Shown here one piece after another: positions 32,571-55,055 of a stretch of 64,000 nucleotides of DNA (positions are counted from its first letter, which is position 1; each line of letters starts with the position of its first letter). The stretch lies in the NCBI GenBank assembly GCA_025594325.1, contig JANHCV010000009.1, forward strand, positions 1,426,001 to 1,490,000, written 5' to 3'. The translations under genes and the position numbers were made by a program. Below the pieces are notes generated by a model. It searched no databases. It was not told the DNA's origin and was given only the letters and a program-made list of their open reading frames with translations. Source of the DNA: Blastocladiella emersonii ATCC 22665 (taxonomy: Eukaryota; Fungi; Blastocladiomycota).

Positions 32571-33586
32571 GCGGTGCTAGGGACGAGGTCAACGAGTACT
32601 GAGGGGCGAGGTTGGGCGAGCGGCAGGTGAGTGGGCGGCATGTGCGTGGAACGGAGTGGGAGCTGTGTAGCGCGCCGTACGCGCCGTGCGGCGACAGGCC
32701 GAGCGCCGCACATCGCGCGCGTTACGCCACGAGGAACATTCGCGACTGAGAGCTGGGAACTTCGAGGGGTCCGTGTTGCAGCGCAGTGGGGGAGGCGCGG
32801 CTTATCGCGCGGCGGAGGACGAGAATGAATGTTGAATGGCAGTGCGTCAGTACAGCGGGTCGCATCGCGAGGAGCGAAGCGCGAGTACAGCGCGGCAGGG
32901 AGCGAAGGGAGGGGTTTAGCGAGGAGCGGGGGAGCTGGCTGGCGCGGAGCGGGTGCGAAGAAAGGGGATGAGGGAGGCGAGGGGCACGGCGAATACGCTG
33001 TGGGGCGGGGAACGAGAGCACGGCGTCATAGAGGGAAGGTTGCAAGGGCAATCACGCGATGCTAGAGGAGACCAAAGTAGCAGTTCGAGGTCACGCGCGC
33101 GGGTCGCACTGCGAGCGAGCCATGGCGCCGGTCCGAGTGGGAGCGGCACGAATGTAGCGAGCGGCGCGCGAGGAGACGAGGCGTCGCGGGACGAGGCGAT
33201 GGAAGCGCTCGTGTTCGAGTCGCACAGGCGGGCGGCGGCGCAGTGCAGCGAGTTACATGTTCAGATCATCGGAATACATGGCAGGCGGGATCGGACGAGA
33301 GGAGAGACGGAGCTGGTCGCGCGTTGTGCAATCGACTGGGCGAGGGACGCGAGACAAAGATCGCGCGTCGCGGTGATATGGGATCCCACGTGCGGGCGAA
33401 TTCGCCACGTGGCGGCAGGCTTCTCGTTTTCGCTCCACGGAGATCAACGGGCCAGGCCGGCGCCGAGCTGCCCCGCCCGCCCTCGCTTGCTCACCGCCGT
33501 GCACACTCTCCCTCCCTCCCTCCCGCCTCTCTTCCGCCCCCGCTCGCGCATCTTGGATCGCTCCCTCCCAGAAAGTGCTCTTGACC

Positions 33587-34694
33587 ATGGCATCAACACC
33601 CGACGCACCCGCCGCGCCGCCGCCAGCTGCAGAACCAGGCGTCAAGGGCAACAACTCATTCATGGCGTTGGGCGTGGTCCCGGAGACGGCGTTGGCAACG
33701 GGCGGGGGCGCCTCCAAGGGCAAGGCTAAGCGCGCCGCCTCGTCGCCGGGCGCCCCGCCGTCCAAGAAGCGCAACAGCAAGCAGCCGCCGTCCAAGGAGT
33801 CGAGTGCCGCCGCCGCCGCCAGCACCGTTGACAAGGGCTATGCCGATTTCGTCGACGCTCAGCTGGCCATCAACCAGGTCGCCAACGACGCGCTTCCGCC
33901 GCTGTCCAACGTTAAGGTACGCTTTTCTGTGTCACCCTCCCGCTGGCGTCACACTTTTGCTCGGCGCGAAAGTCGAACGCTGGCGTCACACTTTTCCTTG
34001 GCGCAAAAGTCAGACGCTCGCGTCACACTTTTGCTCGGCGCGAAAGTCGAACGCTGGCGTCGCACTTTTCCTCGGCGCAAAAGTCAGACGCTCGCGTCGC
34101 ACTTTTGCTTGGCGCGAAAGTCAGACGCTGGCGTCGCACTTTTCCTCGGCGCAAAAGTCAGACGCTGGCGTCGCACTTTTGGTCGGCGCAAAAGTCAGAC
34201 GCTGGCGTCGCACTTTTGGTCGGCGCAAAAGTCAGACGCTGGCGTCACACTTTTCCTCGGCGCAAAAGTCAGACGCTGGCGTCGCACTTTCGTGCCAGCC
34301 CTGTCCCGTTCCTCTCCAATGCTTCCATGCGTGCGCGATCACATCACTCACTGTGTTCAAGCCTCTCTCATAGGCAATTATGTGGACTCCCTTGACGACA
34401 CTGGTTGGTCACGCCATTGTTGGTGCTTCGTGCCTTCTGGAAGGAAAGGTGCAGGCTGTGGACGTTGAGCTTTCAGCCGAGTCAATCCAGAATGTGATTG
34501 AGGGCAACGCTCCAATCCACGCCAGTAAACTTCTCGTTCCGCTGTTTGTATTACATATATTTAGTTTGATTCATAACTCAATTGGTTGCATCACTTTGAG
34601 GGCTGTGGAGACGTCACGCATACGGTTCGCGCGAACTGAACTGACTACCCTCTCTAAAAACTGTAGCAATATACGCGATGTACGTTTTTTATAA
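33587..34694 (+). CDS. Passenger gene of unknown function inside the hAT element (~215 aa if spliced 33917-34372)
   Basis: Lys/Ser/Ala-rich exon 1 with a basic NLS-like PPSKKRNSK. Donor gtacgc after ...SNVK; acceptor ctcatag gives in-frame AIMWTPLTTLVG... The intron holds the 37-bp array. Confidence 0.45.
33943..34312. repeat. Second copy of the 37-bp minisatellite (~9-10 units), opposite orientation
   Basis: cgctggcgtcgcactttt(g/c)ctcggcgcaaaagtcaga units. It ends in the same tail (gccagccctgtcccgttcctc) as the first array. Confidence 0.95.
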
Positions 34695-35376: not shown

Positions 35377-36400
35377 ATGGAAGCTCATGAACTCCGTGCA
35401 TTGCGCTTTGCGTACCTTCCCGCTGAACTTGTCGCGACCGTTCTGCAGCTTGCGATCCCGCGGCCTGTTGTCCCTCTCTCTCGACCAGCGGCTGGCTTTG
35501 CGGCGGTCTTGGCGAACCTGGCGAACCCGTCAAACCGTCAAACCATCAAACCAGTGAGTGAGTGAGTGAGTGGGTCGGTCCAATACCACGCGCTTCGCTT
35601 CCCGGTTTGCGCCACCGTTGGCCGACTGGCTCAAGGACTTGCAACCAGCTTCACCGAAACGGGCGGAGTACTTCTCAAGCATGCGCCGGCCTGCTGCAAT
35701 CGCCATGGAACCTCGCCGATTACCGCCCTTTTCCCACCCACACTTTCTTGCGCACGACTTGGTGGGTCGTATGCGCTGCGCCCTTGCGTGTTGGAATCTT
35801 GCCTCAAGGAGCGGCTTGCCCCGCCCGCTTGGCAAGCGAGAGCTTCCAAGCGCGATGGCAAATGGCCGTCCAAGCCCAACGACACCTTTGAAGAAACCTC
35901 CGCTCAAACCGCAGGGCGCAAATGACCGCTTGACGCCAAGTCCGCGCGACCTTTGCCGCCAGAACTCGCGATCGCGATGTACGCCGAGCCGACTCTTCTA
36001 TACCACAAATGGTATTGTCCTGCCCGCCATCTTGCTTTTATTACGCGATGCGCAGTTCTTTGCGCTGCGCCGGATCGCTCGCATGGTTGCCGCGGCAGCG
36101 TTGTGTGTGTTGCTCTGCCCATCACGCTGCTGAAGTGGACGACGCGTTCGGCAGGAGCACGTTTGCCCACTGGCCTGCCTACACTTGTCGAGATACTAGA
36201 TCGGCGTGGCTCCGTTCCGTCTCTCGCTGCCCGACAAGGCTTGCGGTGTGGTCGGGTCGGTACTCTTGCGTAGTTTGCTGGCGCGACCCGCGGAATTTGC
36301 GTAGACCGAAACACGGGCCCGTCCGTCGCTGCTCTTCTTGCCAACCGAAAAGTGCAGCACTGACTGAATGCACCCTCCCCACTCCTGCGGCGGTTCAACA
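35377..36400 (+). pseudogene. Family A N-terminal fragment, heavily decayed
   Basis: MEAHELRALRFAYLPAELVATVLQLAIPRPVVP is nearly identical to the 41281 start, followed by an insertion (gtgagtgagtgagt) and frame breaks. Confidence 0.65.
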
Positions 36401-36964
36401 CTTATGATGGTGATGGGTTATTTCTATTTTCTTTCGGCCGCTTGAGCCCCCATCAAGCTCGTGTGGCAATCATTGCTGGTGTCGGCGGCAGCACTTGATG
36501 GGGATTCCAGCAATACGTTTGGTTTGCCACAGCGCACGATTTATTCGCTCTTTCGTCCGCGAGGTTACCTACCTCACTCGTAAGCCTTGGAATCCGACTC
36601 GGCGGCATCCATTGGAAATTGCGCTCGCTCGCCTTGGGTTATTTCTGGGTGGTCACTGAGCTGGTTGGTGGTTGGTGGTTGGTGGTTGGTCCTGGTCCGC
36701 TGTGCGCAGGTGATCCACATCCGTCCGTTCTTGCCCGCGGGTCCTCAACGCCATCCTGCCCTTGAGATGAAACGAAGAAAAAAAAAAAAAACGCAATGCA
36801 CCTATATTCTAGTCTAGATCTTGCCAGCGCGCGCGAGGCCCAGCGTCGGAGTCAGAGAGTCAGAGAGTCAGAGCTTCTGACCAGGCTTCTGACGCGTCGC
36901 AACGCGTCCGCACTCCCGCTCCCCACACCACGACTTTGCATGTATATAGACGAAGGACTGCACC

Positions 36965-37929
36965 ATGGAGCACTCTAATGACTTGATGCAACGGGCATAT
37001 CTGCCACCAGAGATCCTTGAGCCGGTTTTTGCCCTCACCCTTCTTCCGCGCCGTTGGTTTGGGGCGGCCTCGCGCGCCAGCTACAGCGCCGTCACTTCCA
37101 AACTCGGCCGCTCCACTTGGGCGCGGCTGGCCATGGACAGTATCTACAGCGTCACCTTTGAGCAGTATTCCAACTGCTGCTTTGAAACGGACGGGACTGT
37201 GGTTGACCGCCAACCCGGTGCCGCGCTCAACTTGCAGTACCCACGCGCGGCGCAGCTGCAGGTCCCCTTCACGTGGTACCTCAAGTCGCTCATCCCGGGC
37301 AAGCTGCGGGATGGTTCCGGCGGCCTTTGCGGCGGCGACGACCCTGCACTGGTCCGCGCGCGCACATCGCACCCGTTTTTGGCCGCGGTCCTTGACACCC
37401 TCTATCGGCCGCAAGACTCGCCGGGACTGCAAAGACTTGGCGCGCGCCAGGCTCGCGCGGCTGAGCAAAGCCAGGTAAACGGCGCCAACGACTTCACGGC
37501 CACCGCGCTCCAACTTCGCTCTGCCTTTTCACACGCGCCCGAGCTCCTGATGCTGCCCTGCTTCTTCCTCATGGTCAACGACCCGGAGAACATGGACAAA
37601 TGCCTCGCTCGGCTCAAGGCCCTCCTACCCGGCCTCGCCCGCATCCGCGCGCCCATTGAGGCGTGGCTGCCCTTATGGATCGCCGAGGACACAGCGACCC
37701 GCTTGCGACTTGACACCGCTCTCTTGCACGCACGCCGCGCCAACCACTGCGTAACGTTCCTCGAGTCGCTAACGCTGGCCTCACTGGTCTACTGGAAGCC
37801 CAGCCCCCTTTACACAAGCCTCGCCCACAACATGACCAAGTCGCGGCAGTTTGTAGCCTTTGCGTCCGACCCTTACGTGTGCGCGGCGTACCATGCTGTC
37901 AGCTGGCACAGACTCTTGGGCGGCCTGCG
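36965..37929 (+). pseudogene. Family B N-terminal half, truncated by unrelated sequence from ~37930
   Basis: F-box-like YLPPEILEPVFAL. Homology ends at VSWHRLL (compare DAWKRIL and ASWSHIL in paralogs), and the C-terminal half is absent. Confidence 0.55.
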
Positions 37930-40900
37930 TGTCACGGCGCAGCGTGACAGTGTGGCGGACCGTGGCGCGAGTGGCGCCGCCAGTTTCCTGTCTCGGACGC
38001 GTGTGTTGGTGTTTGGTATTTAACCTGGAGGAGCGGTCCGCCCGGTCCTCGCTCCTTGCAGAACAAGATCAATTATTACATCACCGTAATACTCGCCCGT
38101 CCAACCACCCCTGGGACCTGACCCTCACACTGCGCAACATGTTTGAGTCCAGCCTCAGTTCCAACCATGGACCACGGCTTTGATTGCTTGCGCGGCAGAT
38201 TACCATGTTTTTCCGCAGCCACGTTGCTCATGGCCGTGGTGGCGTTGGCCACGGACGCGTGCCCGCCACACGCCTTGTACCTGCGCCGCTGCTCTCATCA
38301 CTGGCACCACAGACTAAAGCTACAGCTGAGACCCAAGTGTGTGCGCAGCACACACACCTAGTTTTTATTAGACTCAGCTGAAACCAATGCGGGGATTCGG
38401 AGACTTGGAAAAAGAATCGAAACGCGTGCATTGGGGTCGGAGGTCAAGACTGAAAACGGATCTGTGCTTTGGGTCACGCACGTGAAGGTTGATGTGCTTG
38501 GTAGCTTCAAATTGCTCAAACAAAAACTCAGCTTCGCTAAATCTACAGCTGAGAATAATGCATGGAGTTGGATGGCCAGAGCTCGAGTTTCAGTCAGGGC
38601 ACAAGAGATGGAGGTCAGAGCGGTCAATAGGTGACACGTCTCCCAGTGTTGCGCCACCTGGCTGCGCCACCCGCTGTGCCACTGCTATCCGGTCCGAAAC
38701 TTGGTTCAACCAGGTCTCGCTGGCCGGAAAGTTGAAAGCGCCAATCCGACCAACCAAGCCGGAGCTTTACTGAGCTTTACTGCGCAGAGTTGGAGCTGAA
38801 AGAACTGAAAAGGCGAAAGTTGGAGGACGGATATTGGAGGCTGTAAAGGCGGTGAGCGCGAGTACCAGTGGTCAAAGCGGGACGAGAGTAGTATCAGAAT
38901 CTTCGTTAGAAACAATCGTTCCCATTGCCGGAAGTCAAAGAGTTGGCCAAGCTGTTGGATCACCAAACTGTGACAGAAACGGAAGCGACAGTTGGCGCCC
39001 AAGGAAAACTGACAGTCATGAGCGTTCAAACTAATCTTGAAATTGGTCCCAAGTGGTGGGTCGCGCTTGACATGGCATTCCCTTGCCCTGCAACAAACAA
39101 CAAAAAGGTATTGTTTTGGAGAAACAACAGCAACCTCACCGCCCTTCAGCGGCCGCAAAACCGCAACGGCTTGGAACGCGAGGGTACAGTGCATCCGCTC
39201 TTGATGAGACAACGTAGTGCTGCGCTCAGCTTTTGGAGCACCTCAACGAATCAAGCGATTCTCTCCCAATCAAGGCCAAGAATTTTTGAGGAACCGAGCC
39301 AGATACGGAGCAGAGATGGAGAGAAGTGTTGTGAGTACTTCTAAACGACGGACGGCGGGGCGAGATGAGGTGTGAGCAAATCGAAGTGCATCGGAGGTGA
39401 CCGCAAAGAGCGACCCACACTTGCGCACGCACAACGCCCGCTTCTCCAGATCGCAACCACACACACATCACATCGGGGAACGCGTCTGAGGCTCACAGGC
39501 AGGGGATGATGCAACGCGCCGCGCGGCGTCTGCTTACACAGTGTGCGCACTTGCCTAACGCGCAAGGCGGTGGTGCACCAATACGCGGGACGCCTGGCGG
39601 CGGGGAGGTTGCTGGAACGCGCGGCGCAGGGTCTGCTAACACAGTGTGCGCACTGGGCAGACGCGCAAGGCGGTGGTGCACTGATACGCGGGATACACAA
39701 CGGCACGATCTGCTGCCGTGAGCGCAAGGTGGCGCACATGTTGATGTGAGGGAGAACGGAGGTGGGCGGCTGGGCTAACCGCGCCAGCGGCCCCGTGTCA
39801 ACCACTGCAGGCACTGGGACCCGCCACCGGGGCAGGCTGCGATTCCCGCCCTGGTGCTCGGCCGCTTGCACGGTCCGCGGCCCGCGCCAGCACAGCGGGC
39901 GCAAGTGAGGTGACTGCATGGCAGCAGGAAAGTGGGGAAGCGAATTGGAGGAAGCGGAGGCCGTACGTACATCAAGCTTCAAGGGCGAGCAGGGCTCATA
40001 ACCAGTTGAAGCGTACAGGTGCAGGGTGCGAGAGGAAGGTTGAGCACAATGCACAGAAGGCTGAGGAGATGATGGAGATGGTGATGGGCACAGCGAAGGA
40101 GGTAGACACAGAAAGGGGGGAAGGGTGTATAACGACGGCTAATAGTAGCAGCGATCCAGAACAAAACAAGAGGGAGCGGAGACGCCCGCTCGAGGTGAGC
40201 GTGCGACCCCACGGCGAGGCAGTCCGCCAGCGGTGATTGGAGTGACACTGGCGGCACGTGCCACTTGCGTGATTGCCCAACGCGTCTCTCGCAGTTGGGC
40301 CAGCGTGCGCGTGTGTGCTTGAACTGTGCACGACACCTGTCACACAACGGATGCCACAAAACAGGTGCGTCACTTTGATCTTCATCCAGCACCAGGACCT
40401 GCTGCAACTGCAACGTCTTGCAGCGCGTGGTCAAATACTTTGGTTCACATTGATCAGATGTCTTTTTCGGCCAGCACCCAGACCAGCTTGACGACTAGAG
40501 CGACCAATTGCCCATCACAGCGCATAACTTGGTGCACGACGTGTGGAATACAATGGCCCCCGCAAACAACGCTTGTTGCCTTGGACTCTTGTCATTGAAA
40601 GCAGCGGTCTTGACAGAGACTCCTACAGCTGAGAGTCAACCCCATCGCCCCAGACTACTGTCTTGCGTGCGAGTCCCCAAATCTCCTCTACAAGCTGCTT
40701 AGCTTGGTGTCACATGCGCGTTTGGCATGGTGTGCAGTTTGAGGGCGTTGGTTGAGCTCACGCACGCCGCGCTGGTGCTAATGGTCTTGCAGCTTGGTGG
40801 TAGCCCTCAAGACCCCACACGGCAGTGCCCTAGTCTGGTGCGCGTCGCGTGCATGGTTCTGTCATCAACTTGTATTGGGGTTGCATCTGAAGAAAATATG

Positions 40901-41280
40901 GAGTGGTGGTGGAAAGGAATGGTTTCAGCTCATGGAGAGGTACACCACGGGACCTGGTTCGACTCTCGGCCAGGGTACGTTCATCTGATACAGGCCGTAC
41001 AGTGTCTGAGATGTCGTACCGAGCAAGAGATATCCCGAGCACGTGAGCGTGCCAACCGGCATTTCCGCTGATTTTTTTTGCAAGCAAATTTAGTCTCGAA
41101 AATATCATCAAGTGGTTTGTTTGAAGTTGTCGCCACTCGACACGCTGAGGACGCGTTGCGCCACAGACGAGAGTGACAGGCCGCTCGCGTGACCGCGCTC
41201 ACAAAACGGGTGGCGCTTTTCGAACGCGCAATCGCCCACTCTTCTCCCCCGCCTCACCTTAAACCACATGCAACTTCGCC

Positions 41281-43876
41281 ATGGAAGCTCATGAACTACG
41301 TGCAACGCGCTTCATGGACCTGCCCGCTGAACTTGTCACCACGGTCTTAAACCTTGCGCTCCCGCGGCCGGCCATCCCGCTGGCGACTCGAGGTTTCTCG
41401 GCAGTTGCTTCCAGAAAGACAACCCAGTGGATCTGGCGGTGCACATTTATGTTCGAATCGAGCCTTTTTGGGTGTACGGCGTCGCAGCGGTATGGCCAGG
41501 GAGCTGCAGTTTGAGTACTACCTTGAATACCTCGGCTTTTGCAAGTGGGCTGCTTCCCGTGCCAGGACGCATGACAAATTTCTTTGGATGCCTGGTCTTG
41601 ATGCCTTCGATATCCCAACGCTCAGTCGACTCCTTGCCCGATTTACCCAAGACTTACGCGACCTCCCCGACTGCCCGTCGAAAGATCCACTGAGCATGTT
41701 CAGCGATCCACATGCTCATTTTCGCCACAACATCCACTGCCCACCGTGTTCGCGCATTTTTTTTTGCTGCGCTTGTCGCACTGTTGTTTGCAGCGCAAGG
41801 CCGTCTTGGGCACCTCGGCGCTGTTCTAGATTCGCTTGTTCCGTTCCGCTTCGCTTGCCACCGCATGACTCTTGTGCAGTGGAGCATCCCTGGGCTCGAC
41901 TGGCGATGCAAAACCAGTCTGGCAGTCCGCGGTCACTTCCGCGATGTGGAGCATTTCTTACGCCTTGCCTTTAACCCTGTCCCCCCTCACAATTGGCCGA
42001 CCTTCATCGAATACCTTGCGCTCTATGAGTTGATGTGGTGGCGACCCGAGGTACTTGCCCTTCTCGATTTGCCGGAATACGGACTGGACAAGCCCCGCTT
42101 CCTTCAAACAGTTTACGAATGCGACCATCTCGGAGTTGCTTTGGCGGCGTACTACCCCTCGCTCACACCGAAACGCGTGGTCGACACCCTACATTGGTTT
42201 GTTGGCGACAGTGGCGAGCTGGTCGACCGCGACCGCTGTCCCTCCGTGGCGGCATTCTTTGCCCACGAGTTTACCACCGAGTGTATTCTCGAAGTCGTCC
42301 GCCGGCTTGACACGTACGAAGGGTTCTTGCATCTTGAGCAGGAGGATCAGGATTTATTGATCACGGCGGCGCTGAGCGAAGCCCGCTTTGAAACGGCCAT
42401 CATACCAGGTGACTCCAATCAACACGAGGACATTATTGTGCGCATTGCGAGGCTCGGCGTTGCTGACGAGGCTCGTATGACCAAGGTGCTCCTTGCTCTC
42501 ATTGAACTGAAGTCAGACAACTTGTATGATTTTGCTAGCTACGCGTTCGAGCGTCGTGGCAGCAAAGTCTTCACCGACGGTACATTTTCCGCATAGCATG
42601 CGACATTGTTCGAGATTATACTGACGCCCACTTCCGTGAGCTAGCCATGCTGCTCGCGCTTGGGGTGGACGAACACGGACGTCTCACAAGTGTTGGTCTC
42701 GACACGGGCGCTGAGCCTGTCAGTATTGAAGGGCCGGACTTGAATCTTGACGGCGAGTCTATCGCACACACCGCGTTCGTCTCATACGCGGCAAGGCGCA
42801 ACCTTCGCGATACAGTTCGCAACATCACCGCGATTCTTGAACTCGGAATGCGTCAGTCACTCGACGAGCAGCACTTGCTCAGTTACTCAACTCTCACGGT
42901 CCTTGCCCAACGTGGGCTCCTCAACGACGTGAGCGCCTTCCTCGGAAAACATCGCGGCTTGGTCAACGCGCTCAAAACTTACCAGCTTGCGATGGTCAAC
43001 TCTTTCGAAAGCTCTCAAAATCGCTTTGAGCCCCGCCTCGCTGTCCCTTACGGCCGGCTCCTATTGGCGCTTCTCTGCGATCAGGCCACTGCCCTGACGA
43101 CGCTCACGTTCCTCAACGAGGTGGATGACCGACGCCTACTTCCGTGCGCTCACTGGCAGTTCCACCAGCTTCTCCTGCCCGAAATCCGGCGCGGCGCGGG
43201 TGCGATGCCCCGCTGGGGCATGAGCGCAGCGGGGTACGTAGACACGCTACCCCTCATTTGCTCGACGCGCAAGGGCTTGGACAACGCGACTTTACTTGAG
43301 CCGTCAGTCGCTCCACCAGCACGCCCATCAAACACGTCCGCTTCATCTCTTCCTAATGATCTCCCAGAGTCATCATGGGCACCGTGGCAGTATGCGCTTC
43401 ATTGCATGCTCACCAAGGTCCCCAACTTTACGCTCACCGCCGACACGATCCCCGAGCCCGTCCGTCGCATGTTGTTCTCTCGCGAGGCACTCTTTCGCGC
43501 TGACTTTTTGCGCCGCGGCGAGTCGGCCAGCGGTGTTCCCGGTCCCGGCACCGAGACGGCGTGGATCATCGAGCAGCTGTACCGCGCGGCGCCCGCGGTC
43601 CTGATCAACGACCTCGTTCGTGTCGGCGTTACGAGTCCGTCCTGTGTTTGGCGGATGCTTCCGCGCGGCGCACTCGATGGCGTGCGTTCGGCCAAGTGGC
43701 TTCTCGCTGCTGCAATCGTGGCACTTGACCGGTTCCGTGGAAAGTATGCGGCACTCCGCGAGGCCCTGGCGGATCTGTTAGCGGCGGCAGATGCGACCGC
43801 CAAGTCGGCCGAGTTCCGCGGCATATTCAAGATCGAGTGCGAGCGGCGCGCACTTGATCATTCGCGGCTCGTGTAG
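41281..43876 (+). pseudogene. Full-length family A member with two frameshifts (~41480 and the T-run at ~41760); intron ~42580-42645
   Basis: ORFs 41281-41514, 41354-41974, 41712-42596 and 42647-43876 tile one protein ending LPRGALDGVRSAKWLL...ECERRALDHSRLV. Confidence 0.8.
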
Positions 43877-44365
43877 CTCGAATCACTCTCTCCTCCGGTT
43901 GTGTCGTTCCTGACAATATAATCAGCATCTCTCTCCCAAGTTTCTTGCCTTTCCTGCTCAGACACTCTGACTCGCAAACCTTCCGGCGATGACCATCATG
44001 TTCCGATACTCCTGTTCCTATTCGCTTGCTTCGGACCCCCTGCTCCGCTGCTTCAGCACCAATTCTCCAACTTCCATGTCCTTACTGCCCTGCTCCTACC
44101 ACCTTGCTCTCGAACGAGCGTGGACGCGTCGCGCCACTCAGCCACTGTGGCGGAACTTGAAACACGTCGGGGGTCCTGATCACTGACCTGATCCGGACTG
44201 AGGGCCCTGAATCAGGCGGATCGGGACGCCGAACACCGGTCCTCGGTGAAGTGGGACATCCCGCCAGCACCACCAATCAGGCCGTCGCTCACCAGCGTCT
44301 CCGCCGCCGCAGTTCCTGCCTCACTTTTTGCGAGCCGCGTGACTAGTCGTCGCCGTCACGGTGCG

Positions 44366-44913
44366 ATGGCCGGGCCATCGCACCGCCTGCGCCACGTCTA
44401 CTCACGTCCCCACCGTCCTCCCCAGGCGCGACTCTACGCAACAATCGACCAAACGCCGTTCGGCCTGCACTCGCCGGACGGCCGGCGGCTGCACTACCCA
44501 GAGTCGCTGGCCGAGATCGACGAGGCCGCAATGGTGAAGGAGGGCAAGAAGTCGGTGGCCGAGATGGCCGCGCGCGGCTACCACCGCGTTGCGCGGCGGT
44601 TCTGGCGGTACGGGCTGTCCGGCGGCCCGTGGCAAGAAGGGCGTGACGGGTCCGGCACCGGGTGACCGCGTTCCAGGCGGCGGTCCTTGCCCGCGACGAC
44701 CTGTACGTGCGCGCGGAGGCGGGGGAGATCGTGCTGGCCGACCCGCAGGAGCTGGCAAGGAAGAAGCACCCAGATGTGATCGAGGAGCGGCTGTATCGCC
44801 CGTCGTACAAGGACGTGCTCGCGCGCGGGTCGATCAAGCTCAATAATGCGTACCGCGACTTTGACACGATCGCGGCTGAGCTGCGCGCGTACCTTGCGCG
44901 AGGTGTGCCTTAA
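44366..44913 (+). CDS. Small hypothetical protein, possibly spliced or frameshifted
   Basis: Two adjacent coding-like ORFs (44246-44665 and 44662-44913) with host-like GC3. No recognisable motif. Confidence 0.3.
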
Positions 44914-45060
44914 CCCGCTGGCGACGGCGTCGGTTCTGACGGGCCTGTTGGCGAGCGAGTAGTCCGTGTTGTATCATTCAACCTTACCGCCTCCCTCTCA
45001 AACCGACGCGCCGCGCCACACCACGACCTACAAACAACTACAATACATCTACTCGTTCAC

Positions 45061-46750
45061 TCACTCATGCAACACCGCGACCATCGCCTCGGCATACTCC
45101 GCCCCCGCCACCATCTTCCCCGCGACCCGCCGAATCTCCTTGACCACCTCCCTCGCCCCCTCCCTGTCCCCGACCTTGACCCCGTGCTCCCTCGCCGCGA
45201 CGACCGCGCGCGCGACCCACGTCGCGTCGCGCACCCTGTCGAGCTTCCCGTCCGGCACCGCGCGCCAGAACGCGAGCGGGTACGTCGTCCCGTCGTCGTC
45301 GTCACCCGCGAGCACGTCGAGCAGCCCCGCGAGGTCCGCGTCCGCGAGCTGCCGCACCGTCTCGCGCAGCGGGTGCTTGACGGCCTGGCACGCCGCGCGG
45401 CACGGGGCGGATTCGGACGGCGTGTGCGACTGCGAGAGCCGCGCGGCGGACGTGGGGCGGGCGTTGGCGAGGTCGGGCACCGACTTGAGCAGCCCGAGCA
45501 GGTCCGCGACGACGGGCAGCGGGATCTCGCGCGTGGCGCGGGGGAACGCGGCGAGGAGCCGCGCGACGGCCGTCTGCCACGCTTGCTGCGCCGAGAGCGG
45601 ACACTCGCCGCACGCGTTGCGGTGTGCGGACAATTTGACGGCGTGGCGTCCAACGCGCCCGTGGATCTGCGCGCTCAGCATGACACCAAGAAACAGCGGC
45701 GCGGTGTCCGTGTCGCGCATGAGGGCGACGGCGCGGTCGCGTTCCGCCAAATCCAAAAGGGCGGCGGCGGGGACCCACGCGAGCGCGGTGCAGGACGCGG
45801 CGGCGTACTGCGCGACGCACGCGTTGGCGAGGAGGAGCATGTCCCACAGCGACGCGGGCGCGTGGGCGCTCGAGAAGACGTGTTTCAGGTCCCGCGCGGC
45901 CTCGGTCTGCTGTACGCGCGACGGGCCGTGGAGCGCGGCGACGCGGTCGGAGAGCGTCGAGGCGAGGTCCGAGGCGAGGGCGAGCATCGGAGCGTCGTCG
46001 GCGAGGTGCGTGCGGGCGAAGGCGAGCAGGAGGTGTGGGCGGGTTTCCGGGTTGAACCATGAGATGCACTTGGAAAAGGCTAGAAGCGCGCACGGGAATC
46101 AGTACGGGTCGGTGAGATTCAAAAATGTAACGTACTGGCGACGACGACGCGCTGCAGCCAGTCATCCAGCCGCTCAGCCACAAACTCGGTCGAGCACGGC
46201 GTCCAGTTCGCCGCTTCCCCGCGCAGCGCCGCGCACAGGACCGCGGACCACCCGGCGTCGTTGAGCAGGCCGTGGTAGTCGAGCACCTCGACCGTGTCCT
46301 GGGCGCACGGCACTGTGTTCTTCCGGATGCGGTCCGCGAGCTCGTCGCGGTCTTTGGGGAGGACCGACTCGAGGACGTGCGGCGGCGCCGTGGCCAGGAC
46401 ATGCTCAAGCACCGCAACAGGCCGGACGGCCGCGAGGTACAGCGCGAGATGCGGCTCGCCGGACCGGCACTGCGGCCTAGTCCACGCGTGGGCGAACAGC
46501 CAGTCAAACATGGCGGTCGCGTCGTCGGCGACTGCGGGCGGCATGTCGGTCGGGATCAGCGACAGGAGCTTGTCGTCGTTCCACATTGGGCGGACGAGGT
46601 CCACGACCAGGTCGGGGTCGGGCGAAAACTCGGGCGCGAGGAGCACGCCGAGCGAGCGGCCGCTCCACTGGTACACGCTCAGGACCGCGAGAAAGTCGGC
46701 GAGCCGCAGGTCCCGCGCGTGCGCGAGGAACGGCCGCGAGTACACGTTCC
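45061..46750 (-). pseudogene. Family B member missing ~230 N-terminal residues, cut by the viral insertion
   Basis: LRLADFLAVL aligns with VRLVDFLGIL of the 13383 paralog, and the C-terminal half (APLFLGVMLSAQIHG..CGEC) aligns with 11336-12016. Homology stops at ~46750. Confidence 0.75.
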
Positions 46751-46752
46751 CC

Positions 46753-48339
46753 AATGCCAAAGAGCTCCTTGACGTCTGGGTGCCTTACATCCTTGCCTTT
46801 GACTACAAGGTGACGCCCGAGAGCTATGCCAACGACTTTGGCTGCAAACGAGGCGACTCGCTGTTCTACCTCAGGCACCAGGACGGCGTCACTGGGTACG
46901 AGGTCAAGGACCTCCAGGAGCACGTCCAAGATACGCTTAAAGCGTGGGAAGAGCACCAGGCAACAGGCAAGGTCACTTGAGTCCCAGTCGCTCCACCAGC
47001 GGCAAGCCCCAGACCAGAGGCCCCCAAGTCGGCCACGGACAGCGACAGGGGCAGCAGCGAAGAAGAACGCGACGAGCTGGCAGAAGAGATCTCACAAGCC
47101 CTGGACGTCATTGACGAGGACGCTGTACCAGACCACTTGCTCCCCGTGCCCGTCCGGCCAGTCATGCCCGAGCAGTACCCGGTCGAGGCCGGCGACTATG
47201 TTGGTCAAGACATTGACAAGTACGGCGCCATGATCCCCGGCCAGTACCTGATCCAGAATGACAATGACGGCGGCAACGACCCGCCCCCAAGGCTTGACAA
47301 CGGCACCCGCGACCTCGTGGTCATGCCACCAAGCTACGGCCCGGACGTGGCACAGCGGCAAGGTGTGTACAACGAGGGTCACGTCCACCCAGCCATGGAC
47401 GAGGCACGCATGATCGAGGGCTCCAAGGACTTGCAGGTCTACAACCCCGAGCGGGCGCTGACAACCACGGACAACATGGAGGTCAACGTTGTCCAGAACT
47501 TTCAACAGTTTAACCAGTTCGTGTACAACAGCTACACGCAGCAGAACACGCAGAACGTCGACATGCGGCAGTTCATCACCCAGTACGAGAACAACTACTA
47601 CAAGCAGAACGTGGACATGCAACAGCAGATCCTGGTCCAGTACAACAATGACCCAAACGTCATGGCCGCGCTCGAGCTCATTGCCTCGCAGTTTGCTGGG
47701 TCCCAGGTCATGCAGTTCCAGGCGTACCAGGCGCTCATCGAGCAGTCGGCGGCCGCTCAGGGACTGGCCATGGACGCATTTGCCAACCTCGCGTCTGGGA
47801 TCGTGGACACGCTCCGAGCCAAACGCAACGACTTTGTCCGCCAGATTGACGCTGGCAACCGCGCGCTTGTGTCTGAGATTGCCACGGGCATGTCCTCTGC
47901 GCTCAGCAACCAGCAGGTGCTCATGAACCAGCTTGCAAGCGGCGTCCAGGGCGCGATCCAAGGGCAGACCCAGAGCAACAAGGCCATGACCAAGACGCTC
48001 CAAGACCTTGGGTCCAAGCTGGACACGATCCCTGCACCCCAAGTCATTGTCCAGCCTGCCGACACAAGCGGCCTCGAGGCCATGATCAGGGAGCTGGCCG
48101 CGCAAAACAATTCTGGTGGTAGTTCTAAGAAGACCGACATGCTCCTCGAACAGATCCTCAAGCAACTGGGCTACAAGAAGCCGACCAACGCGAAGCTGTT
48201 CACAGACAAGCGGGCAGCGGGTAGCGGGCTGACAGCGCCCAAGATCCAGCGTCACCAGAAGATCCCTGAGCGGCCCGTCAAGCAGGTCTGTGAGACCCCA
48301 AGGCGCAGCGGCATTGTGCTTGACCTCGGCTGGGACTGA
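46753..48339 (+). pseudogene. Viral large Q/N-rich helical protein (>=528 codons), 5'-truncated, with an internal TGA at 46978-46980
   Basis: NAKELLDVWVPY...GKVT*VPVAPP... reads in frame into ORF 47137-48339; the 156 nt between them is in frame. Confidence 0.7.
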
Positions 48340-48365
48340 CACCCTTTTTTGTTGGCAGTCTTTAA

Positions 48366-49163
48366 ATGTACGACATTGTTGCCATTGACAACGGCTTTAC
48401 GCGCAACGACGACGGCGAGCCGCTGCCAATCCCCAAGCACCCATTCACCATGAACGTCATTGGCGCCAAGGGTCAGGGCAAGTTGACGCTGATCGCAAAC
48501 ATGGTCTGCTTCCCGCACTTTTACAAGGGCCAGTTTGACAACATCTGGGTCTTTAACCCAACGTTCCACGCCAACAACAAGTACAAGTACATTGCCAGTC
48601 AACAGATCCTGCGACCGCCCAAGAAGGAGCGCAACGTGCTGGACCCCCAGGAGCGCGACCCGGACCAGCTCAAGATCAAGCCAAGCTGCATTGTCACGGA
48701 CCCCGAGCAGTTCATCCCGACCCTGCTCAAGATGCGCCAGGACCTGACCAAGACATTCAAAGAGTCTGGCAAGAAGGCGCTCCAGGACCAGCTGCTGATC
48801 ATTGACGACGTGCTTGGGCTCAAGCTGCTGAGCCACAGAACGCTGACCAACTTTCTGTGCAACTCGTGGCACTTGAAGATCAGCTGCATCATTGGCGTCC
48901 AGCGGTGGTGTGCCCTGCCCAAGACTCTGCGCATCAATTGCAGCTACAGCGTCGTCTACCCAATCTATGACAAGACCGAGGTCCAGACGCTGCACAAGGA
49001 GATTGGGTCGCAGTTCGACCTCAAGGAGTTTGAGGCCATCATTGAACAGCTCTTTGACACGCGTACTGGCAACACGAAGCGACGCTTCCTGGGCGTCAAC
49101 AACCAGAACCCGCCCAAGTACCGGCTCGTAGACAGCTTCAGCGAGTGGATTGTGAAGCAGTAG
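48366..49163 (+). CDS. A32/FtsK-HerA-type viral genome packaging ATPase with probable inactivating substitutions
   Basis: Walker A GAKGQGKLT, Walker B LLIIDD, NSWHLKISCIIGVQ (the RH..iS....Q motif), LPKTLRINC. 265 aa, typical length for the family. Confidence 0.92.
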   Translation: MYDIVAIDNGFTRNDDGEPLPIPKHPFTMNVIGAKGQGKLTLIANMVCFPHFYKGQFDNIWVFNPTFHANNKYKYIASQQILRPPKKERNVLDPQERDPDQLKIKPSCIVTDPEQFIPTLLKMRQDLTKTFKESGKKALQDQLLIIDDVLGLKLLSHRTLTNFLCNSWHLKISCIIGVQRWCALPKTLRINCSYSVVYPIYDKTEVQTLHKEIGSQFDLKEFEAIIEQLFDTRTGNTKRRFLGVNNQNPPKYRLVDSFSEWIVKQ

Positions 49164-49203
49164 ACTCTTGACTTTTTTTTGTTGCCGAGTCCTAAACTAA
49201 ACC

Positions 49204-50424
49204 ATGTCCAGTACCAACGCCCAGTTCTCGCAGGTCCTGTCCAAGACTCTCCCTCCTGAGATGTCGTTCAACCTGCCCAAGGAGTCCGTCTATGCCGAGC
49301 GCCAGACCGTCCAGTTCACGGCTCAGGGCGGCCCCGAGTTTGCTCCTGGCAACAGCATCAGCGTCCTGCTCCCGCCGCGTGACGACATGATGGACACGCA
49401 CTGTACTTTCCTGCAGTTCTCGGCCAAGACCACAGACGCCAACGTCGCTTTCTGCGATGGTATCTTCAGTGTCATTGACCGTGTCCGCATCTACAGCGCG
49501 TCTGGTGCCCTACTCGAAGAGCTCCCGTACTACAACCTGCGTCAGCGCATCGAGGCCGACGTGACGGTCCCCCAGTACCTCAAGGACTCGTGTCTCGGCG
49601 TGGCACAGGGCTACTTTGCGTCCGGCGCGGACAAGTTCGCCGTCTCGTCCGGGCTGCACCGGTACATGCTGCCCATCAAGTTGGCCCTGCTGGCAAACCA
49701 GAAGCACCTCCCAATGAAGTACACGGGCGGCATCCGCGTCGAGTTCACCCTTGCACCTGGCAGTGACGCCTGCGTGGTCAAGAACAATGCCATCCCGGGC
49801 TACACAGTCAAGGACGTCTGCATCGTCTTGGACCTGATCAAGCTCAACGACCAGCAGATCGCGGTCATGGACGCGGCCTTCAAGAAGCAGGGCCTCAAGC
49901 TCTTTGGCACGACCTACAACCACCACTTCCTGAAGTACTCGGTGCCCAACTCCACGCTCAACATCTCGGACCGCTCGGCCTCACAGAAAGACATCCTGCT
50001 GTTGTTCCGCGACAATGCCGTGCTCAACGACAATGCCAAGGACTCGTTCCTTTGTGCCAAGACCATTACATTGTACCAGTTCAGCGTGGCTGGCCGACTC
50101 TTCCCTCAGCGACCCATCCGCTGTGACGACTACGCGTCCGAGGCGTTCGTTGAGCTGACCAATGCCTTCCATGGCCACATCATTGGCGCTGGCCTCACAG
50201 TTGACAAGTTCAACGCGCCGGCCGAGGGTACCTTTGTCGTTGGCCGTGACCTCAAGTCGAGTCGCACCGTGGTCAGCGGCGACAAGTCTTGCAAGAGCCA
50301 GGCCGTGGACATGCAGGTGATCCTGACTTCAAGCGTGGCCCCGAACCAGCGCGTGGACGCCTTCATTGGCATCGACGTGGTCTACGAGTTCCTGCCAACC
50401 GGCGAGATCAACATCTACAAGTAA
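49204..50424 (+). CDS. Double jelly-roll major capsid protein, PLV/Polinton type (406 aa)
   Basis: Beta-strand-rich sequence with FAPGNSISVLLP, IDRVRIYSASGALLEELPYYN, LPIKLALL..QKHLPMKYTGGIRVEFTLA and YQFSVAGRLFPQRPI patterns typical of PLV capsids. It lies directly after the A32 ATPase. Confidence 0.85.
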   Translation: MSSTNAQFSQVLSKTLPPEMSFNLPKESVYAERQTVQFTAQGGPEFAPGNSISVLLPPRDDMMDTHCTFLQFSAKTTDANVAFCDGIFSVIDRVRIYSASGALLEELPYYNLRQRIEADVTVPQYLKDSCLGVAQGYFASGADKFAVSSGLHRYMLPIKLALLANQKHLPMKYTGGIRVEFTLAPGSDACVVKNNAIPGYTVKDVCIVLDLIKLNDQQIAVMDAAFKKQGLKLFGTTYNHHFLKYSVPNSTLNISDRSASQKDILLLFRDNAVLNDNAKDSFLCAKTITLYQFSVAGRLFPQRPIRCDDYASEAFVELTNAFHGHIIGAGLTVDKFNAPAEGTFVVGRDLKSSRTVVSGDKSCKSQAVDMQVILTSSVAPNQRVDAFIGIDVVYEFLPTGEINIYK

Positions 50425-50466
50425 CGGCCCTGTCCTTTCTTTTCTTGCGTAGAGTTAAACCCCGCC

Positions 50467-50733
50467 ATGATCTTCCGTAACCTCTGGACCAACTTTAGCA
50501 ATGTGCTTGGCCAGGTCGGGTCCTTTGTCAACAAACACATGCCAACCGTCCTCAAAGGCGTCAAGACTGTGTCCAAGTTCTTTGAGCGGTCGCACAACCC
50601 CGCCGTGAGCTCCATTGCGCAGATGGTGACCAAGGGCGCCAACCTTGCCCAAGACATTCACACCTGGTACAACCGACCAACGAGCGAGATCTTTGAGGCA
50701 GACGCTGACGACACGGGGACAGCTGTACAATAA
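50467..50733 (+). CDS. Small viral protein (88 aa) with an N-terminal amphipathic helix and acidic tail
   Basis: ATG ORF between the major capsid and penton genes, preceded by the shared viral motif. Sequence begins FRNLWTNFSNVLGQVGSFVNKH. Confidence 0.7.
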   Translation: MIFRNLWTNFSNVLGQVGSFVNKHMPTVLKGVKTVSKFFERSHNPAVSSIAQMVTKGANLAQDIHTWYNRPTSEIFEADADDTGTAVQ

Positions 50734-50751
50734 ATTGTTGTCTTTGTTTAA

Positions 50752-51495
50752 ATGTCCGAGTACAAGACGCTGACCATCTGCAGCCGCGACCTCAAGAACG
50801 GCATCCTGTACCTACCACGACCCCTGTCCGTGCGCAGCGTCAAGGTCAACTCGGCGTACCTCTGCAACAGCTGGCACACAGTCAACTCCAAGGCCAACAA
50901 AGTGTACCTGACCCAGAGCCGTGGCGCGCTGACGTTCCCGGGCACCATCACCGTCCCTGATGGCAACTACACGGTCGAGACGTTCACGGCCACGCTCAAG
51001 AGCCTGCTCAACAACGCGCCCTCAGCGTACCTCTGGCAGGGCACATGGGACGTCCAGGTTGACTCGACTACCCAGAAGATGCGCCTGGCCAACAACACGG
51101 TCGACTTTACAATTGGAACAGGGACGGCGTCGCTGAACGTCCACATGGGCTTTGTTGGAGCGTATGGCTACAGCAAGGTCCAGTACGCGTCGGCGCTGGT
51201 CAACATCTCGCCCATCAACCTGCTTCACGTCTACTCGCGCAACCTTGGCACCCGGCTTGCGGACAACATGTACAGCGCGTATCCACAAGACAACGGCGTA
51301 CTTTGTAGCATCCACGTCACGCAACCCTTTGGCAGCTGGTTCGAGCATTGACCACACATGGGCGACTACTTTCGCTTTGACGCGCAGGGACAGGCCCAGC
51401 AGATTGACTGTATTGACATTGACGTGGTAGACAAGAGCCTGCGCTCAGTCGACTTCCTCGGCCAACCCTTCTACGTCGAGCTCGCGTTCATCTGA
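50752..51495 (+). pseudogene. Minor capsid protein (penton, single jelly roll, 247 codons) with a premature TGA at 51349-51351
   Basis: NSWHTVNSKANKVY, ITVPDGNYTVETF and LVNISPINLLHVYS. Read-through gives ...IDCIDIDVVDKSLRSVDFLGQPFYVELAFI*, a typical penton C-terminus. Confidence 0.82.
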
Positions 51496-51526
51496 CGCTG
51501 ACTTTAATTGTTGTCGTACTGTAAAC

Positions 51527-51628
51527 ATGATCCTCGAGACGCTCCTTGTCGCGACCAACGCCCTGATCCTTGTAGCCAACCTGGCCATTGTCGGGTACAC
51601 AAGCAAAGTATTCCACGCCGTAGAGTAA
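51527..51628 (+). CDS. 33-aa hydrophobic viral micro-protein (single predicted transmembrane helix)
   Basis: MILETLLVATNALILVANLAIVGYTSKVFHAVE*, preceded by an exact TTGTTG-N8-TAAAC motif like the other viral genes. Confidence 0.55.
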   Translation: MILETLLVATNALILVANLAIVGYTSKVFHAVE

Positions 51629-51888
51629 GCAACAACATGTGCTTTAAATTCTTTCTGCAAAGGCATAGTAAGACACAGGACAATGAATACTGGCTCTACT
51701 GCATCAACGCCCCGCGCAGCTTCCACGAGCATCCCTTGGACTGGCCGTCCGGGCCCCCAGTCAACAGCCAACTACACGGCCATCCGCAACGTGGCCCTGC
51801 CAGGTGCCAAGGTTGTGTACACTGTCTGCTTTGAATAGATCCTTCAAGTTAACTTGGTTAGCTACCTTGAAGCCTTTACTGGTCGCTC

Positions 51889-52041
51889 TCAGACTACCCG
51901 CCAGTATGTGTACTTGTGCCCACAGCACGGGTACACAACTTGGACCCACAGCAGCTCATTGTCATGGACCCAGCTGGGAGCATCATAGTGATCGCATGGC
52001 GGCTTGGGCAGGGGGACGATCTCTTTGATACAGCCTCGCAT
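51889..52041 (-). CDS. Possible 50-aa Cys-containing viral ORF, perhaps the remnant of a longer gene broken by stops
   Basis: MRGCIKEIVPLPKPPCDHYDAPSWVHDNELLWVQVVYPCCGHKYTYWRVV*, preceded on the minus strand by TTGTTG-N8-TAAC. Confidence 0.35.
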   Translation of the reverse strand: MRGCIKEIVPLPKPPCDHYDAPSWVHDNELLWVQVVYPCCGHKYTYWRVV

Positions 52042-52277
52042 AGTTACAGTGGTCCAACAAAGTTAAAATTGACAAACGCGTTCAACGCACTTGGCATGAC
52101 GTAGCAACGGGACACACTACGGCAATGACATAAAGTAGAAATAAGGGGTGCTCCGCCCTGTCCAGGAAGCGTTGGCCAAGCGCCTCCCAGACTGCTCCAT
52201 GCTGGAGGTCTCCTTTCATGGTGGCCAGCCACTAATCAGAGTTCCAACACGGAGCAGGCATCATTGCTAATACTCAT

Positions 52278-52380
52278 TGAACCACACAGCGCCAACACAC
52301 CCAAAAGACTCATCGAACCACACAGCGCCAACACACCCAAAAGACTCATCGAACCACACAGCGCCAACACACCCAAAAAG
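52278..52380. repeat. 36-bp tandem repeat, nearly 3 copies
   Basis: gaaccacacagcgccaacacacccaaaagactcatc repeated. Confidence 0.9.
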
Positions 52381-52739
52381 AGAGGGAGATAGGAATGGAT
52401 CAAAGAGCACTGCATGGGTAGCTAATCCAAGCAGCGCCCACGATCCAGACCAAGACAGGGGATAACCAAGTCATTGCCGTGCACATACAGATGACTCAGC
52501 AGATCCCAAGCCAAAGGAATAGGGAAGTGGCCACCCGCAATGTTGGCCATGCACCCATACCAGAAGCCTACTGTGAGCGTTGGGCGCATTGCAAAGATGG
52601 CCTATACAATCAGAGTAGGGCTTGAGGCAGTGAATCTGTGACATGGCTTTCATGGTGAGTGGCAAAGAGCAGTTCTCAGGGCGGGGGGAGTGGGGGGTTC
52701 TTATAGGGCCAGGGTTAGCGCTAAATCCTCAGCCACAGG

Positions 52740-53535
52740 GCCCTGATCTGGCACCCCCAACCCTGACCCCCGACCTGGCGCCCCACCTGACCCCCACCTG
52801 ACCCCCCACCTGACCCCCCACCTGACCCCCCACCTGACCCCCCACCTGACCCCTGACCTGACCCCCGCCTGACCCCCCGACCTGACCCCCAACCCTCCTT
52901 GACCCGGCACCCCCAACCTGGCACGCCCCTTCCTGCTAAGACACTGCCTGCTAAGACGCTCCCCTGCCCTGACCCCCCGTACCCTGACCTCTTGTCTTTG
53001 AAAGTCCCAATTTCCCCTATAGAATGCTGGTACTCTATATAGACACTGACTGTTTCATAGGGGAAATTGGGACCTTTACGGTGAGTGGCTTCATAGCAGC
53101 CGCTTGCGGCAGGTGGTCAGGGACGGGCTCGGGGACTGGCTCGGGGACTGCTCACAGATCGACTTGCAGCTGTGCTCAGGGACCAGACCAGGGAACTCTG
53201 TCAGTGGGTAGCCGCAGCTGCGCTGCTCTTTGTCTCGCTGCGCTCGCCGGCCGCCGCCGACCGCTTGGGGTAAGCAATGGTCAGCCCGAGTGGTTGGTCA
53301 GGGACGGGCTCAGGGGTCAGGTCAGGGACTCACTCCTGGACCACTCGCCCCTCCCTTCCACCCACCCTCCCGCCCACCTGCTTTGGCCTTCGGCCTCCGT
53401 CCGCGTGTCATTGCCCTAAGGGCGATGACAGTCTCAGTGATGTCACCCGGGGTAAGCAACTGGGTCTCACGTGGTTACCCCGAGTGACTGCTGCCAACCG
53501 CTCGGGGTAAGCAATTGGTCAGCCCAAGTGGCAGT
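52740..53535. repeat. Strand-skewed CCTGACC/GGTCAGG repeats flanking a 17-bp perfect inverted repeat, plus GGGGTAAGCAA repeats
   Basis: About 10 ccccacctgacc-type units (52785-52890). Arms gtcccaatttcccctat (53004-53020) and ataggggaaattgggac (53057-53073). ggtcaggg units to the right, and three ggggtaagcaa copies. Confidence 0.85.
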
Positions 53536-53584
53536 GGGTCAGCCCATGTCATATCCCTTAAGGGATACAACACATTCTCGCCCA

Positions 53585-55055
53585 ATGGCGGAACGCTTGC
53601 CCATTCTCGACTGGCTATTGCAAACGCGCAAACCTGGCCCGCTTTGGACGGCCAGCGGCTTCCATATCATCAACTTCTTGCTTGGCCCAATCCCTCACGA
53701 CTATTTGCGCCACGCGGCGCAACGCTACCCAACTGCCTTACCGAGGGAATCGAGCAGCGCGATTTGGAAGCAGTCCGACTCCAAGTCGTTGAGTGGAAGT
53801 ACAACGACGTCGACACAAACCTTGTTGTGTTGCTCAACGGTCTGGGCCTCATCAACCACGCATCGTGGTCGCACATTCTCTCGCTGGGGCTCGCAAAGGA
53901 CGAAGGCACTGGCACCAGCGATTTGTCTACGTTCGTGTGCGTGCACTTTGGACCGCGCCTCAAGGAAGTTATTGTTGAAGGTACGCTGAAGTCTGACCAT
54001 GGATATGTTGACTGCTCACACTCTCCTTGACGCTAGCTTTCAGCACCAGTGTTCTTGCTGCCTACAAGGACGGTCGGAGCACGGCCCGCGTTCTGCTCCA
54101 CGGATACCGCCAGCTCGGGCGTGAGCAGTTTGAGGCAGCGCTCCCAAATTTTGGAATCGCACTCTGGAACGCTCTCGGGTTTATGCAGCAAGAAGCGACC
54201 GACGCATTTGTACGCTCGCGACTCACCATACGAACTCTGGACCGTCTGTTTGGGTGTGACGTACATTGGCGCCTCAATCCCTGGCTCCTCTTCCGCCTTG
54301 CAAACGAGTTTCTTGCAGTTGTCCAGGCACCGCACATAAACGACCCTTCCAGTATGGCATGGCTTCCCGTCGTTGTCCTCAGCGACCCCGCCACGCGCGA
54401 TTCCGCGCTCGCGCAGCTCCGCGCCAAGGGCACGGCAACTGCTTCCATCTTTCTGACTATTCTACTCAACGGCCTGGTCGGGACAACGGCCAGCTCACTT
54501 TTCTCCCCGATCCTGCGCAAGGAGACGCGGCGCTGCACCCTCGAGGTCCATGCGTCCTGGACTGCTGCTATGGACGATCTTCACCAGCTGATTCGCAAGG
54601 GCGCAGCCTCGTCTACGACCGCTTCCAATTGGCTCCCTCCCGAGCTCGCGAAATCAGTCCGCTTGATTGCGCAGGACGAGTCAGCCGGCGGGCTCCGCGG
54701 CCGCTTTGACCGCGAGCTCGCCGAGCACCCAGACGGAAAGTGCCCTCGGTGCCACGCCGCAGTCATTCCGCGACTGGAGCAGGCGTTTCGGTTCCTGCTT
54801 CGCGCCGAACCCGTTGCAATGCTCGCGGGCTTCAAGCCCGACAGGGCACTCGCGCTCGAGTTTTGGGAGCTCGTGCCAGACGGTGCACTCGATGGCGTCA
54901 AGGACGCAAAATGGCTCATGAAGATGGCGCGCAGCACCAAGCGCCAGCTCAGCGTGGACACGGCGCGCGCCGTCTTTTGCGAGCTCCGCCGTGTCGCGCC
55001 CGCGACGTCGGTCGGCGCACTCGAGTCGCTGCTCGCGTCGCTTGAGCTGAAGTGA
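53585..55055 (+). pseudogene. Family B member, 5'-truncated, frameshift near 53735, intron ~53981-54037
   Basis: LPILDWLL...GLINHASWSHILSLGL aligns with IIDTLQWLL...DAWKRILCIAL of the 13383 paralog. The C-terminus has FWELVPDGALDGVKDAKWL. Confidence 0.7.

Follow-up and report, generated by a model that had tools for sequence, protein, structure and literature searches.

To our knowledge, small double-stranded DNA viruses of fungi are known almost solely as scattered sequence hits. The closest described systems are Polinton-like viruses (PLVs) of zoosporic fungi, namely an integrated PLV of Allomyces macrogynus with a novel major capsid protein (MCP), an ATPase and a helicase, a PLV in Spizellomyces (Bellas and Sommaruga 2021, PMC7805220), and the PLV ATPases of numerous chytrid genomes, which fall at two places among the Aquintoviruses (bioRxiv 10.64898/2026.06.19.733378). 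Here, we analyzed a stretch of 64,000 nucleotides from Blastocladiella emersonii ATCC 22665 (contig JANHCV010000009.1; hereafter the window, with position 1 as its first letter) and describe an integrated PLV remnant of 6.84 kb at 46730–53572 on the + strand. It is very probable that this element represents the right half of a Polinton-like DNA virus that integrated into the genome. The family to which this damaged copy belongs resides at 24 or more places, and host CpG methylation has likely silenced and mutated its members.

The literature cited here was available in part, and our statements about it refer to the available parts. A 2023 survey left out fungi (PMC10120064). In Allomyces, giant viruses integrate, and CpG methylation was found on part of one (PMC13533422). 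The B. emersonii genome paper, whose assembly derives from HiFi long reads, mentions no viral elements in its available main text (PMC9730499), and Blastocladiella is not named in the available main text of the chytrid study (bioRxiv 10.64898/2026.06.19.733378). A literature search, thin on subscription journals, found no paper tying Blastocladiella to Polinton-like elements, a capsid, 5-methylcytosine (5mC) or the gamma-particle.

Results

The element carries six co-oriented open reading frames (ORFs) on the + strand, tightly packed with a spacing of 18–42 nt. The third of these, at 49204–50424 (+), is uninterrupted and encodes a 406-aa protein with the predicted fold of a double-jelly-roll MCP. 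A search of 1.84 billion cluster representatives retrieved 415 relatives at E 0.001, and an AlphaFold model built from an 81-sequence alignment reached a predicted local distance difference test (pLDDT) score of 93.1 and a predicted template modeling (pTM) score of 0.89. Foldseek matched this model over its whole length to the PBCV-1 capsid chain (E 1.8e-17), and VIA-align placed PBCV-1 first (Z 28.4; root-mean-square deviation 3.3 over 352 residues), followed by faustovirus (26.7) and the virophages Sputnik (20.9) and mavirus (19.1); the top 10 VIA hits, with Z from 28.4 to 19.1, were all viral double-jelly-roll proteins (capsid or scaffold). Sequence identity to the structural matches is approximately 10%. 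The window capsid itself matched no Pfam family at E 0.1, and a sequence-profile search of the PDB returned nothing informative. Among its 81 relatives, none matched Capsid_NCLDV at E 0.01, which does not place the protein in that capsid family, and one each matched Capsid_N and MCP_V20_C weakly. On this modeled fold, the protein would supply the double-jelly-roll capsid that characterizes Polinton-like viruses (Polisuviricotina).

Immediately upstream, at 48366–49163 (+), lies a 265-aa ORF that matches the genome-packaging ATPase family Pox_A32 (PF04665) at E 1.6e-11, scoring 44.6 bits against a cut-off of 22.8, while a sibling copy of the ATPase reached E 1.6e-12. The match to FtsK reached only E 0.2. 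A profile search of the PDB returned nothing informative, and PHROGs gave a single terminase-ATPase cross-hit and nothing else. By sequence, this gene would thus provide the A32-like ATPase of Polinton-like viruses (Polisuviricotina). Its Walker A motif reads GKL in the window, with Leu for Ser as in 2 of 12 full-length copies, and GKS in the other 10.

ORF1 (46730–48339, +) lacks its 5' end and is interrupted by a TGA at 46978–46980, leaving a 391-aa ORF at 47164–48339; its siblings are annotated at 571–638 aa and carry Arg at the position of the stop, and no significant Pfam family was matched. A frame of 247 codons at 50752–51495 (+) encodes a probable minor capsid protein (penton). Its codon 200 is a TGA (51349–51351), where the frame is open in siblings and encodes Arg. 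This protein had no Pfam, PHROG or PDB match; its look-alikes in the Atlas are mostly viral hypothetical proteins, and by eye it resembles a PLV protein printed in the supplement of PMC7805220. Position, size, viral look-alikes and this likeness make the penton identity plausible. Between capsid and penton, an 88-aa amphipathic helical protein (50467–50733, +) is conserved in siblings; the hydrophobic moment of its residues 1–66 was reached in 0 of 2000 shuffles, and no family or PDB match was found. It is possibly an internal membrane-active virion protein, with a role that may be like that of adenovirus protein VI. The last ORF, at 51527–51628 (+), encodes 33 hydrophobic residues, a possible small membrane protein. 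Public gene models join neighbouring viral genes (88-aa ORF with penton, ATPase with capsid) through spurious predicted introns, hiding the viral layout (P0011, P0002, P0033, P0045, P0205).

The element is one of many. The seven closest capsid clusters, 83–97% identical to the window capsid, all come from B. emersonii ATCC 22665, and more divergent subfamilies exist at 85–89% capsid identity. Sixty-eight locus tags fall into 24 groups, the window copy included, on 12 contigs of 1.07–2.84 Mb, a lower bound given that 15 of 26 capsid cluster members were listed. The order ORF1–ATPase–MCP–penton is retained in the tags (for example, 4802–4805), the capsid ORF is uninterrupted in several siblings too, and the sibling proteins recovered comprise the virion module, ORF1 and a small 83-aa ORF preceding ORF1. 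Some pairs of copies encode proteins without any difference and may be segmental duplicates. In X1, one of four DNA runs analyzed (X1–X4), summed contig depth rises from approximately 177 in the flanks to approximately 4400 in the element, a roughly 25-fold increase that is not to be taken as a copy number. Over 2806 bases, eight listed pieces from X4 show 62 differences from the window (2.2%). A 42-aa member of a JGI cluster, P0215, was rejected as a relative, being unrelated by eye.

The limits of the element were set by depth, CpG content and loose-end junctions. On the left, the junction lies at 46730, where a loose end in X4 runs on into a sibling gene, and loose ends show that siblings extend left of this position. 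On the right, repeat depth collapses past 53571, and other copies diverge at 53572–53575 into differing sequences, placing the end at 53572; other copies of the element accordingly have different flanks. This junction is bridged by zero-mismatch contigs in three of the four runs (X1, X2 and X3), covering 53539 onward and hence 34 viral letters. On both sides stand GC-rich host genes of one family, on opposite strands and both directed away from the element. The left one (45061–46729, −; tblastn E 6.6e-11) is 5'-truncated, lacking approximately its first 230 codons: its match begins near residue 238 of a 446-aa, fuller paralogue at 11233–13383. The right one (53573–55055, +; tblastn E 1e-7, and 9e-13 for the 3' ORF) is, by eye, apparently also devoid of its 5' part. 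Most simply, the virus would have integrated into the right-hand host gene, after which a deletion eliminated the left viral end along with both host 5' parts. Microhomology at the left junction was considered and set aside; the host frame is open for approximately 20 codons into viral DNA, which is no evidence without an undeleted allele.

The ORFs searched, 39 of at least 150 aa from the rest of the window and 11 in and around the element, gave no match to a polymerase, helicase, protease or integrase family. The original prediction, made from the letters of the window, had proposed a relic of an integrated double-stranded DNA virus in a zoosporic fungus, built of tightly packed, co-oriented ORFs that include an A32-type ATPase and an uninterrupted double-jelly-roll capsid ORF of approximately 400 aa, with no protein-primed DNA polymerase (pPolB), helicase, protease or integrase in view. 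All of this agrees with our analysis, as does the loss of the left part. The element had been located rightly, with its edges now moved from approximately 46750 to 46730 and from 53550 to 53572; it is not a lone relic but belongs to a family of damaged and related copies. The upstream motif, terminal repeat with palindrome, CpG depletion and amphipathic 88-aa ORF had been overlooked.

The right end carries a terminal repeat of approximately 645 bp (52928–53572), delimited by a constant loose end before 52928 in X1–X3, variable loose ends after 53572–53575, and raised depth. Its constant inner and variable outer neighbours suggest that it recurs at the far end in inverted orientation, as judged from the one end seen. 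The repeat finishes in a 26-bp imperfect palindrome (53547–53572) ending CA-3', whose two mismatches both fall at CpA, as CpG decay would leave, and an internal, near-perfect palindrome at 53405–53430 resembles it. The last approximately 130 bases (53444–53572) show a depth above the rest of the repeat and several differing inner loose ends, which suggests subfamilies or other elements that have this tip alone in common. A 12-bp C-rich tandem array (52743–52915) adjoins the terminal repeat, and three tandem 36-bp units lie at 52269–52378.

Five of the six genes share an upstream motif, TT[GC]TTG-N8-TAAA, located on the + strand at 48349–48366 before the ATPase, 49179–49196 before the capsid, 50442–50459 before the 88-aa ORF, 50735–50752 before the penton and 51508–51525 before the 33-aa ORF. 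These are its only five matches in the 64 kb, searched on both strands; all end within 7 bases of a viral ATG, and shuffles gave a mean of 0.09. This count is biased because the pattern was derived from these same sites. In a fairer test, the five upstream 40-mers shared 8 invariant columns, compared with at most 5 in 500 composition shuffles. Allowing one mismatch yielded 7 matches, a number equalled by 3 of 100 shuffles, and therefore the exact form alone is informative. The TAAA of the motif resembles poxvirus intermediate and late initiators, and the motif is likely a promoter of the structural genes.

The element also bears a distinct mutational signature. Its CpG observed/expected (o/e) ratio is 0.79, versus 1.25–1.31 in the flanks, and the ratios of TpG and CpA within it are elevated to 1.3. 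Among the 40 best-supported differences from other copies (450 more exist), 32 have T for C or A for G in the window, 29 of them in a CpG context. Across 12 full-length ATPase copies, there are 53 departures from the majority, 48 of the deamination type and 1 in reverse; across 7 capsid copies, the corresponding figures are 60, 50 and 8, and the window capsid departs from their majority at 10 positions. The TGA codons in ORF1 and penton and the Walker A Leu would fit the same deamination process. This spectrum is likely a trace of 5mC, and the copies are likely silenced by DNA methylation. A second CpG-depleted stretch, at 38000–41000 (o/e 0.77–0.98, TpG and CpA raised), holds no recognized ORF and is likely another methylated repeat.

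To place the capsid among its relatives, trees were built from 119 sequences of 330–530 aa out of 155 capsid hits (FastTree) and from a hand-picked 28 (IQ-TREE, LG+G4). In both, the Blastocladiella capsids, A. macrogynus AMAG_17996 and environmental proteins lie on one side of a branch; this group of 13 rows has a support of 100/99, and Blastocladiella forms a separate subgroup within the clade. An undescribed fungal PLV lineage, as the original prediction had suggested, is not fully supported: the capsid groups with AMAG_17996, and PLVs of Allomyces, Spizellomyces and chytrids are in print (PMC7805220; bioRxiv 10.64898/2026.06.19.733378).

The remainder of the window holds several other features. 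An expanded tandem family of unannotated host genes occupies 9700–13400, 18800–26300, 35400–38000, 41300–46700 and 53600–55050; many members are frameshifted, and several begin, by eye, with an F-box-like stretch. A 6.4-kb segment at 27910–34314 lies between inverted arrays of a 37-bp tandem unit, with arms of up to 374 nt that are 88% complementary, and is not CpG-depleted (1.35). It contains a frame (28482–29279, −) without a significant Pfam match, whose DGWTS motif we take to be typical of hAT transposases. Two long divergent ORFs encode a cellulose-synthase-like glycosyltransferase of family 2 (GT2; 5137–7272, −; PF03552, E 6e-32) and a glycoside hydrolase of family 26 (GH26; 7623–9407, +; E 2e-11); the former may have reached the fungal genome by horizontal transfer. 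A broken fragment of the RNA polymerase largest subunit (14600–15835; RNA_pol_Rpb1_5, E 1.5e-14) is apparently a pseudogene copy.

Discussion

Our analysis leads to the following model. A linear genome with terminal inverted repeats would have entered the host DNA through an integrase encoded by the virus, probably one of the retroviral (RVE) type, given the terminal palindrome and the final CA-3'. The virion genes would be transcribed as one class from the TT[GC]TTG-N8-TAAA motif. In PLVs, the morphogenesis module forms a shell of capsid trimers with pentons at its vertices, into which the ATPase pumps DNA, and the same would apply to the module in the window. Repeated integration, with some segmental duplication, would have spread the family through the genome; the listed pieces of one run differ by approximately 2% from the window copy, and the spread therefore appears recent. 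C-to-T change at CpG, presumably at methylated sites, would then have eroded the copies. To the window copy, a deletion would have cost the left end with its upstream genes, and to two host genes their 5' parts, and point changes struck Walker A, ORF1 and penton; with this deletion and these changes, the copy could not make particles by itself. Complete siblings are likely to exist in the genome.

Several observations weigh against this model. The best structural matches of the capsid are giant-virus capsids, with the virophage capsids ranking lower. The trees were composed of search hits without any reference PLV and leave the class (Aquintoviricetes) unplaced. The penton model, built from a 5-sequence alignment, had a pLDDT of 35 and no fold match, making its fold search uninformative. 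At the left junction, the flank contigs extend only 30 and 22 letters into viral DNA, under our 31-letter bridging rule. Only X1 clearly shows the doubling of depth expected across the terminal repeat; X3 shows it in part, and in X2 and X4 it is weak or absent. The four runs represent one sample, are not independent of the assembly and may be its own source. The siblings were reached as proteins only, and no replication or integration gene was found for any copy; likewise, scans for DNA around relatives, covering viral contigs (with the capsid, two relatives, and the capsid and ATPase alignments) and metagenome contigs, yielded no locus. Finally, a process like repeat-induced point mutation (RIP) could yield the same decay spectrum.

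The absence of replication genes is what would be expected if the element were non-autonomous and capsid-only, never having carried a polymerase or integrase of its own in this genome and relying on a helper element for movement: every sibling protein recovered belongs to the virion module, ORF1 or the 83-aa ORF. We regard this as improbable. The searches began from window genes, so unrelated upstream genes were out of reach; loose ends show siblings running left of 46730, and the related Allomyces element is reported with a helicase (PMC7805220).

The fold matches to PBCV-1 and faustovirus, the Nucleocytoviricota affiliation of some Atlas look-alike clusters and the integration of giant viruses in Allomyces (PMC13533422) would be compatible with a piece derived from either a giant virus (Mycodnaviridae) or a small virus related to Nucleocytoviricota, rather than from an Aquintovirus-type PLV. 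This origin is highly improbable given an identity of approximately 10% to those capsids and the scarcity of capsid family matches among the relatives (Capsid_NCLDV in none of 81; Capsid_N and MCP_V20_C weakly in one each). A small virus would also account for the layout, in which ATPase, capsid and penton lie next to each other, with a terminal repeat 1.4 kb away, and for the occurrence at 24 loci. As to virophages, the Sputnik and mavirus capsids match the model at a lower Z than PBCV-1, one of the 81 relatives matches MCP_V20_C weakly, and the remnant holds no protease.

The intact capsid ORF, here and in several siblings, might also suggest that the host retains the gene for its own use as a domesticated shell, the module no longer being a virus relic. 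This is scarcely credible: the capsid bears the same deamination-type substitutions as the rest, its neighbours are broken, and sibling divergence is small enough for the ORF to have survived by chance. Contamination, or a faulty join to fungal DNA in the assembly, to which the 30 viral letters spanning the left junction might point, is extremely improbable: three runs bridge the right junction, paralogues lie on 12 megabase contigs and the assembly was made from HiFi long reads.

We thus favour the remnant of an integrated PLV belonging to a multicopy family. It is rather unlikely, yet worth stating, that some of the copies at 24 or more loci are intact proviruses that could be woken by infection with a fungal giant virus (Mycodnaviridae) reading the shared promoter, or by lifted methylation. 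If so, B. emersonii would offer a culturable system of fungal host, giant virus and virophage, and a small double-stranded DNA virion from a fungus. A young, many-copy family in a fungus that has long served in the laboratory and has a long-read assembly makes complete proviruses, their ends, the integrase and inducibility directly readable and testable. The concentration of decay at CpG suggests that Blastocladiomycota silence viruses by methylation, and through the shared promoter one could ask whether it is driven by a giant virus infecting these fungi.

Comparison with known systems

The PLV of A. macrogynus is from the same fungal order and likewise combines capsid and ATPase, and AMAG_17996 and the window capsid share 26% identity (E 1e-33). 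It differs in having a helicase, none being seen in the window remnant (PMC7805220). AMAG_17996 may be the gene described in that paper, whose supplement, as available, gave 0 hits for Allomyces, AMAG or KNE57041, and its available parts give no copy number, ends, promoter or CpG decay for the Allomyces element. The PLVs of the Spizellomyces punctatus group and other chytrids share a PLV morphogenesis module integrated in a zoosporic fungus (PMC7805220; bioRxiv 10.64898/2026.06.19.733378); they belong to another phylum, and no chitinase was seen in the window remnant.

The endogenous PLVs and virophages of Halocafeteria seosinensis resemble the Blastocladiella family in their dozens of copies per genome, terminal inverted repeats, end palindromes and promoter motifs, and their terminal palindromes accompany RVE integrases and non-pPolB replication genes (bioRxiv 10.64898/2026.07.28.741278). 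Their host is a protist, the palindromes of the figured subtype measure 52 nt versus 26 nt here, and the available text reports no convincing 5mC on these elements, whereas the window copies show CpG-focused decay (bioRxiv 10.64898/2026.07.28.741278).

Gezel-14T/PgVV is a PLV with an MCP, a minor capsid protein (mCP), an A32 ATPase and terminal inverted repeats, and Gezel-14T employs the early promoter of its giant virus, AAAATTGA (bioRxiv 10.1101/2022.07.28.501842). The window motif differs from that promoter and precedes structural genes, and no helper virus is known for it. Since Gezel-14T uses a giant virus promoter, it is possible by analogy that the Blastocladiella motif would likewise depend on a helper.

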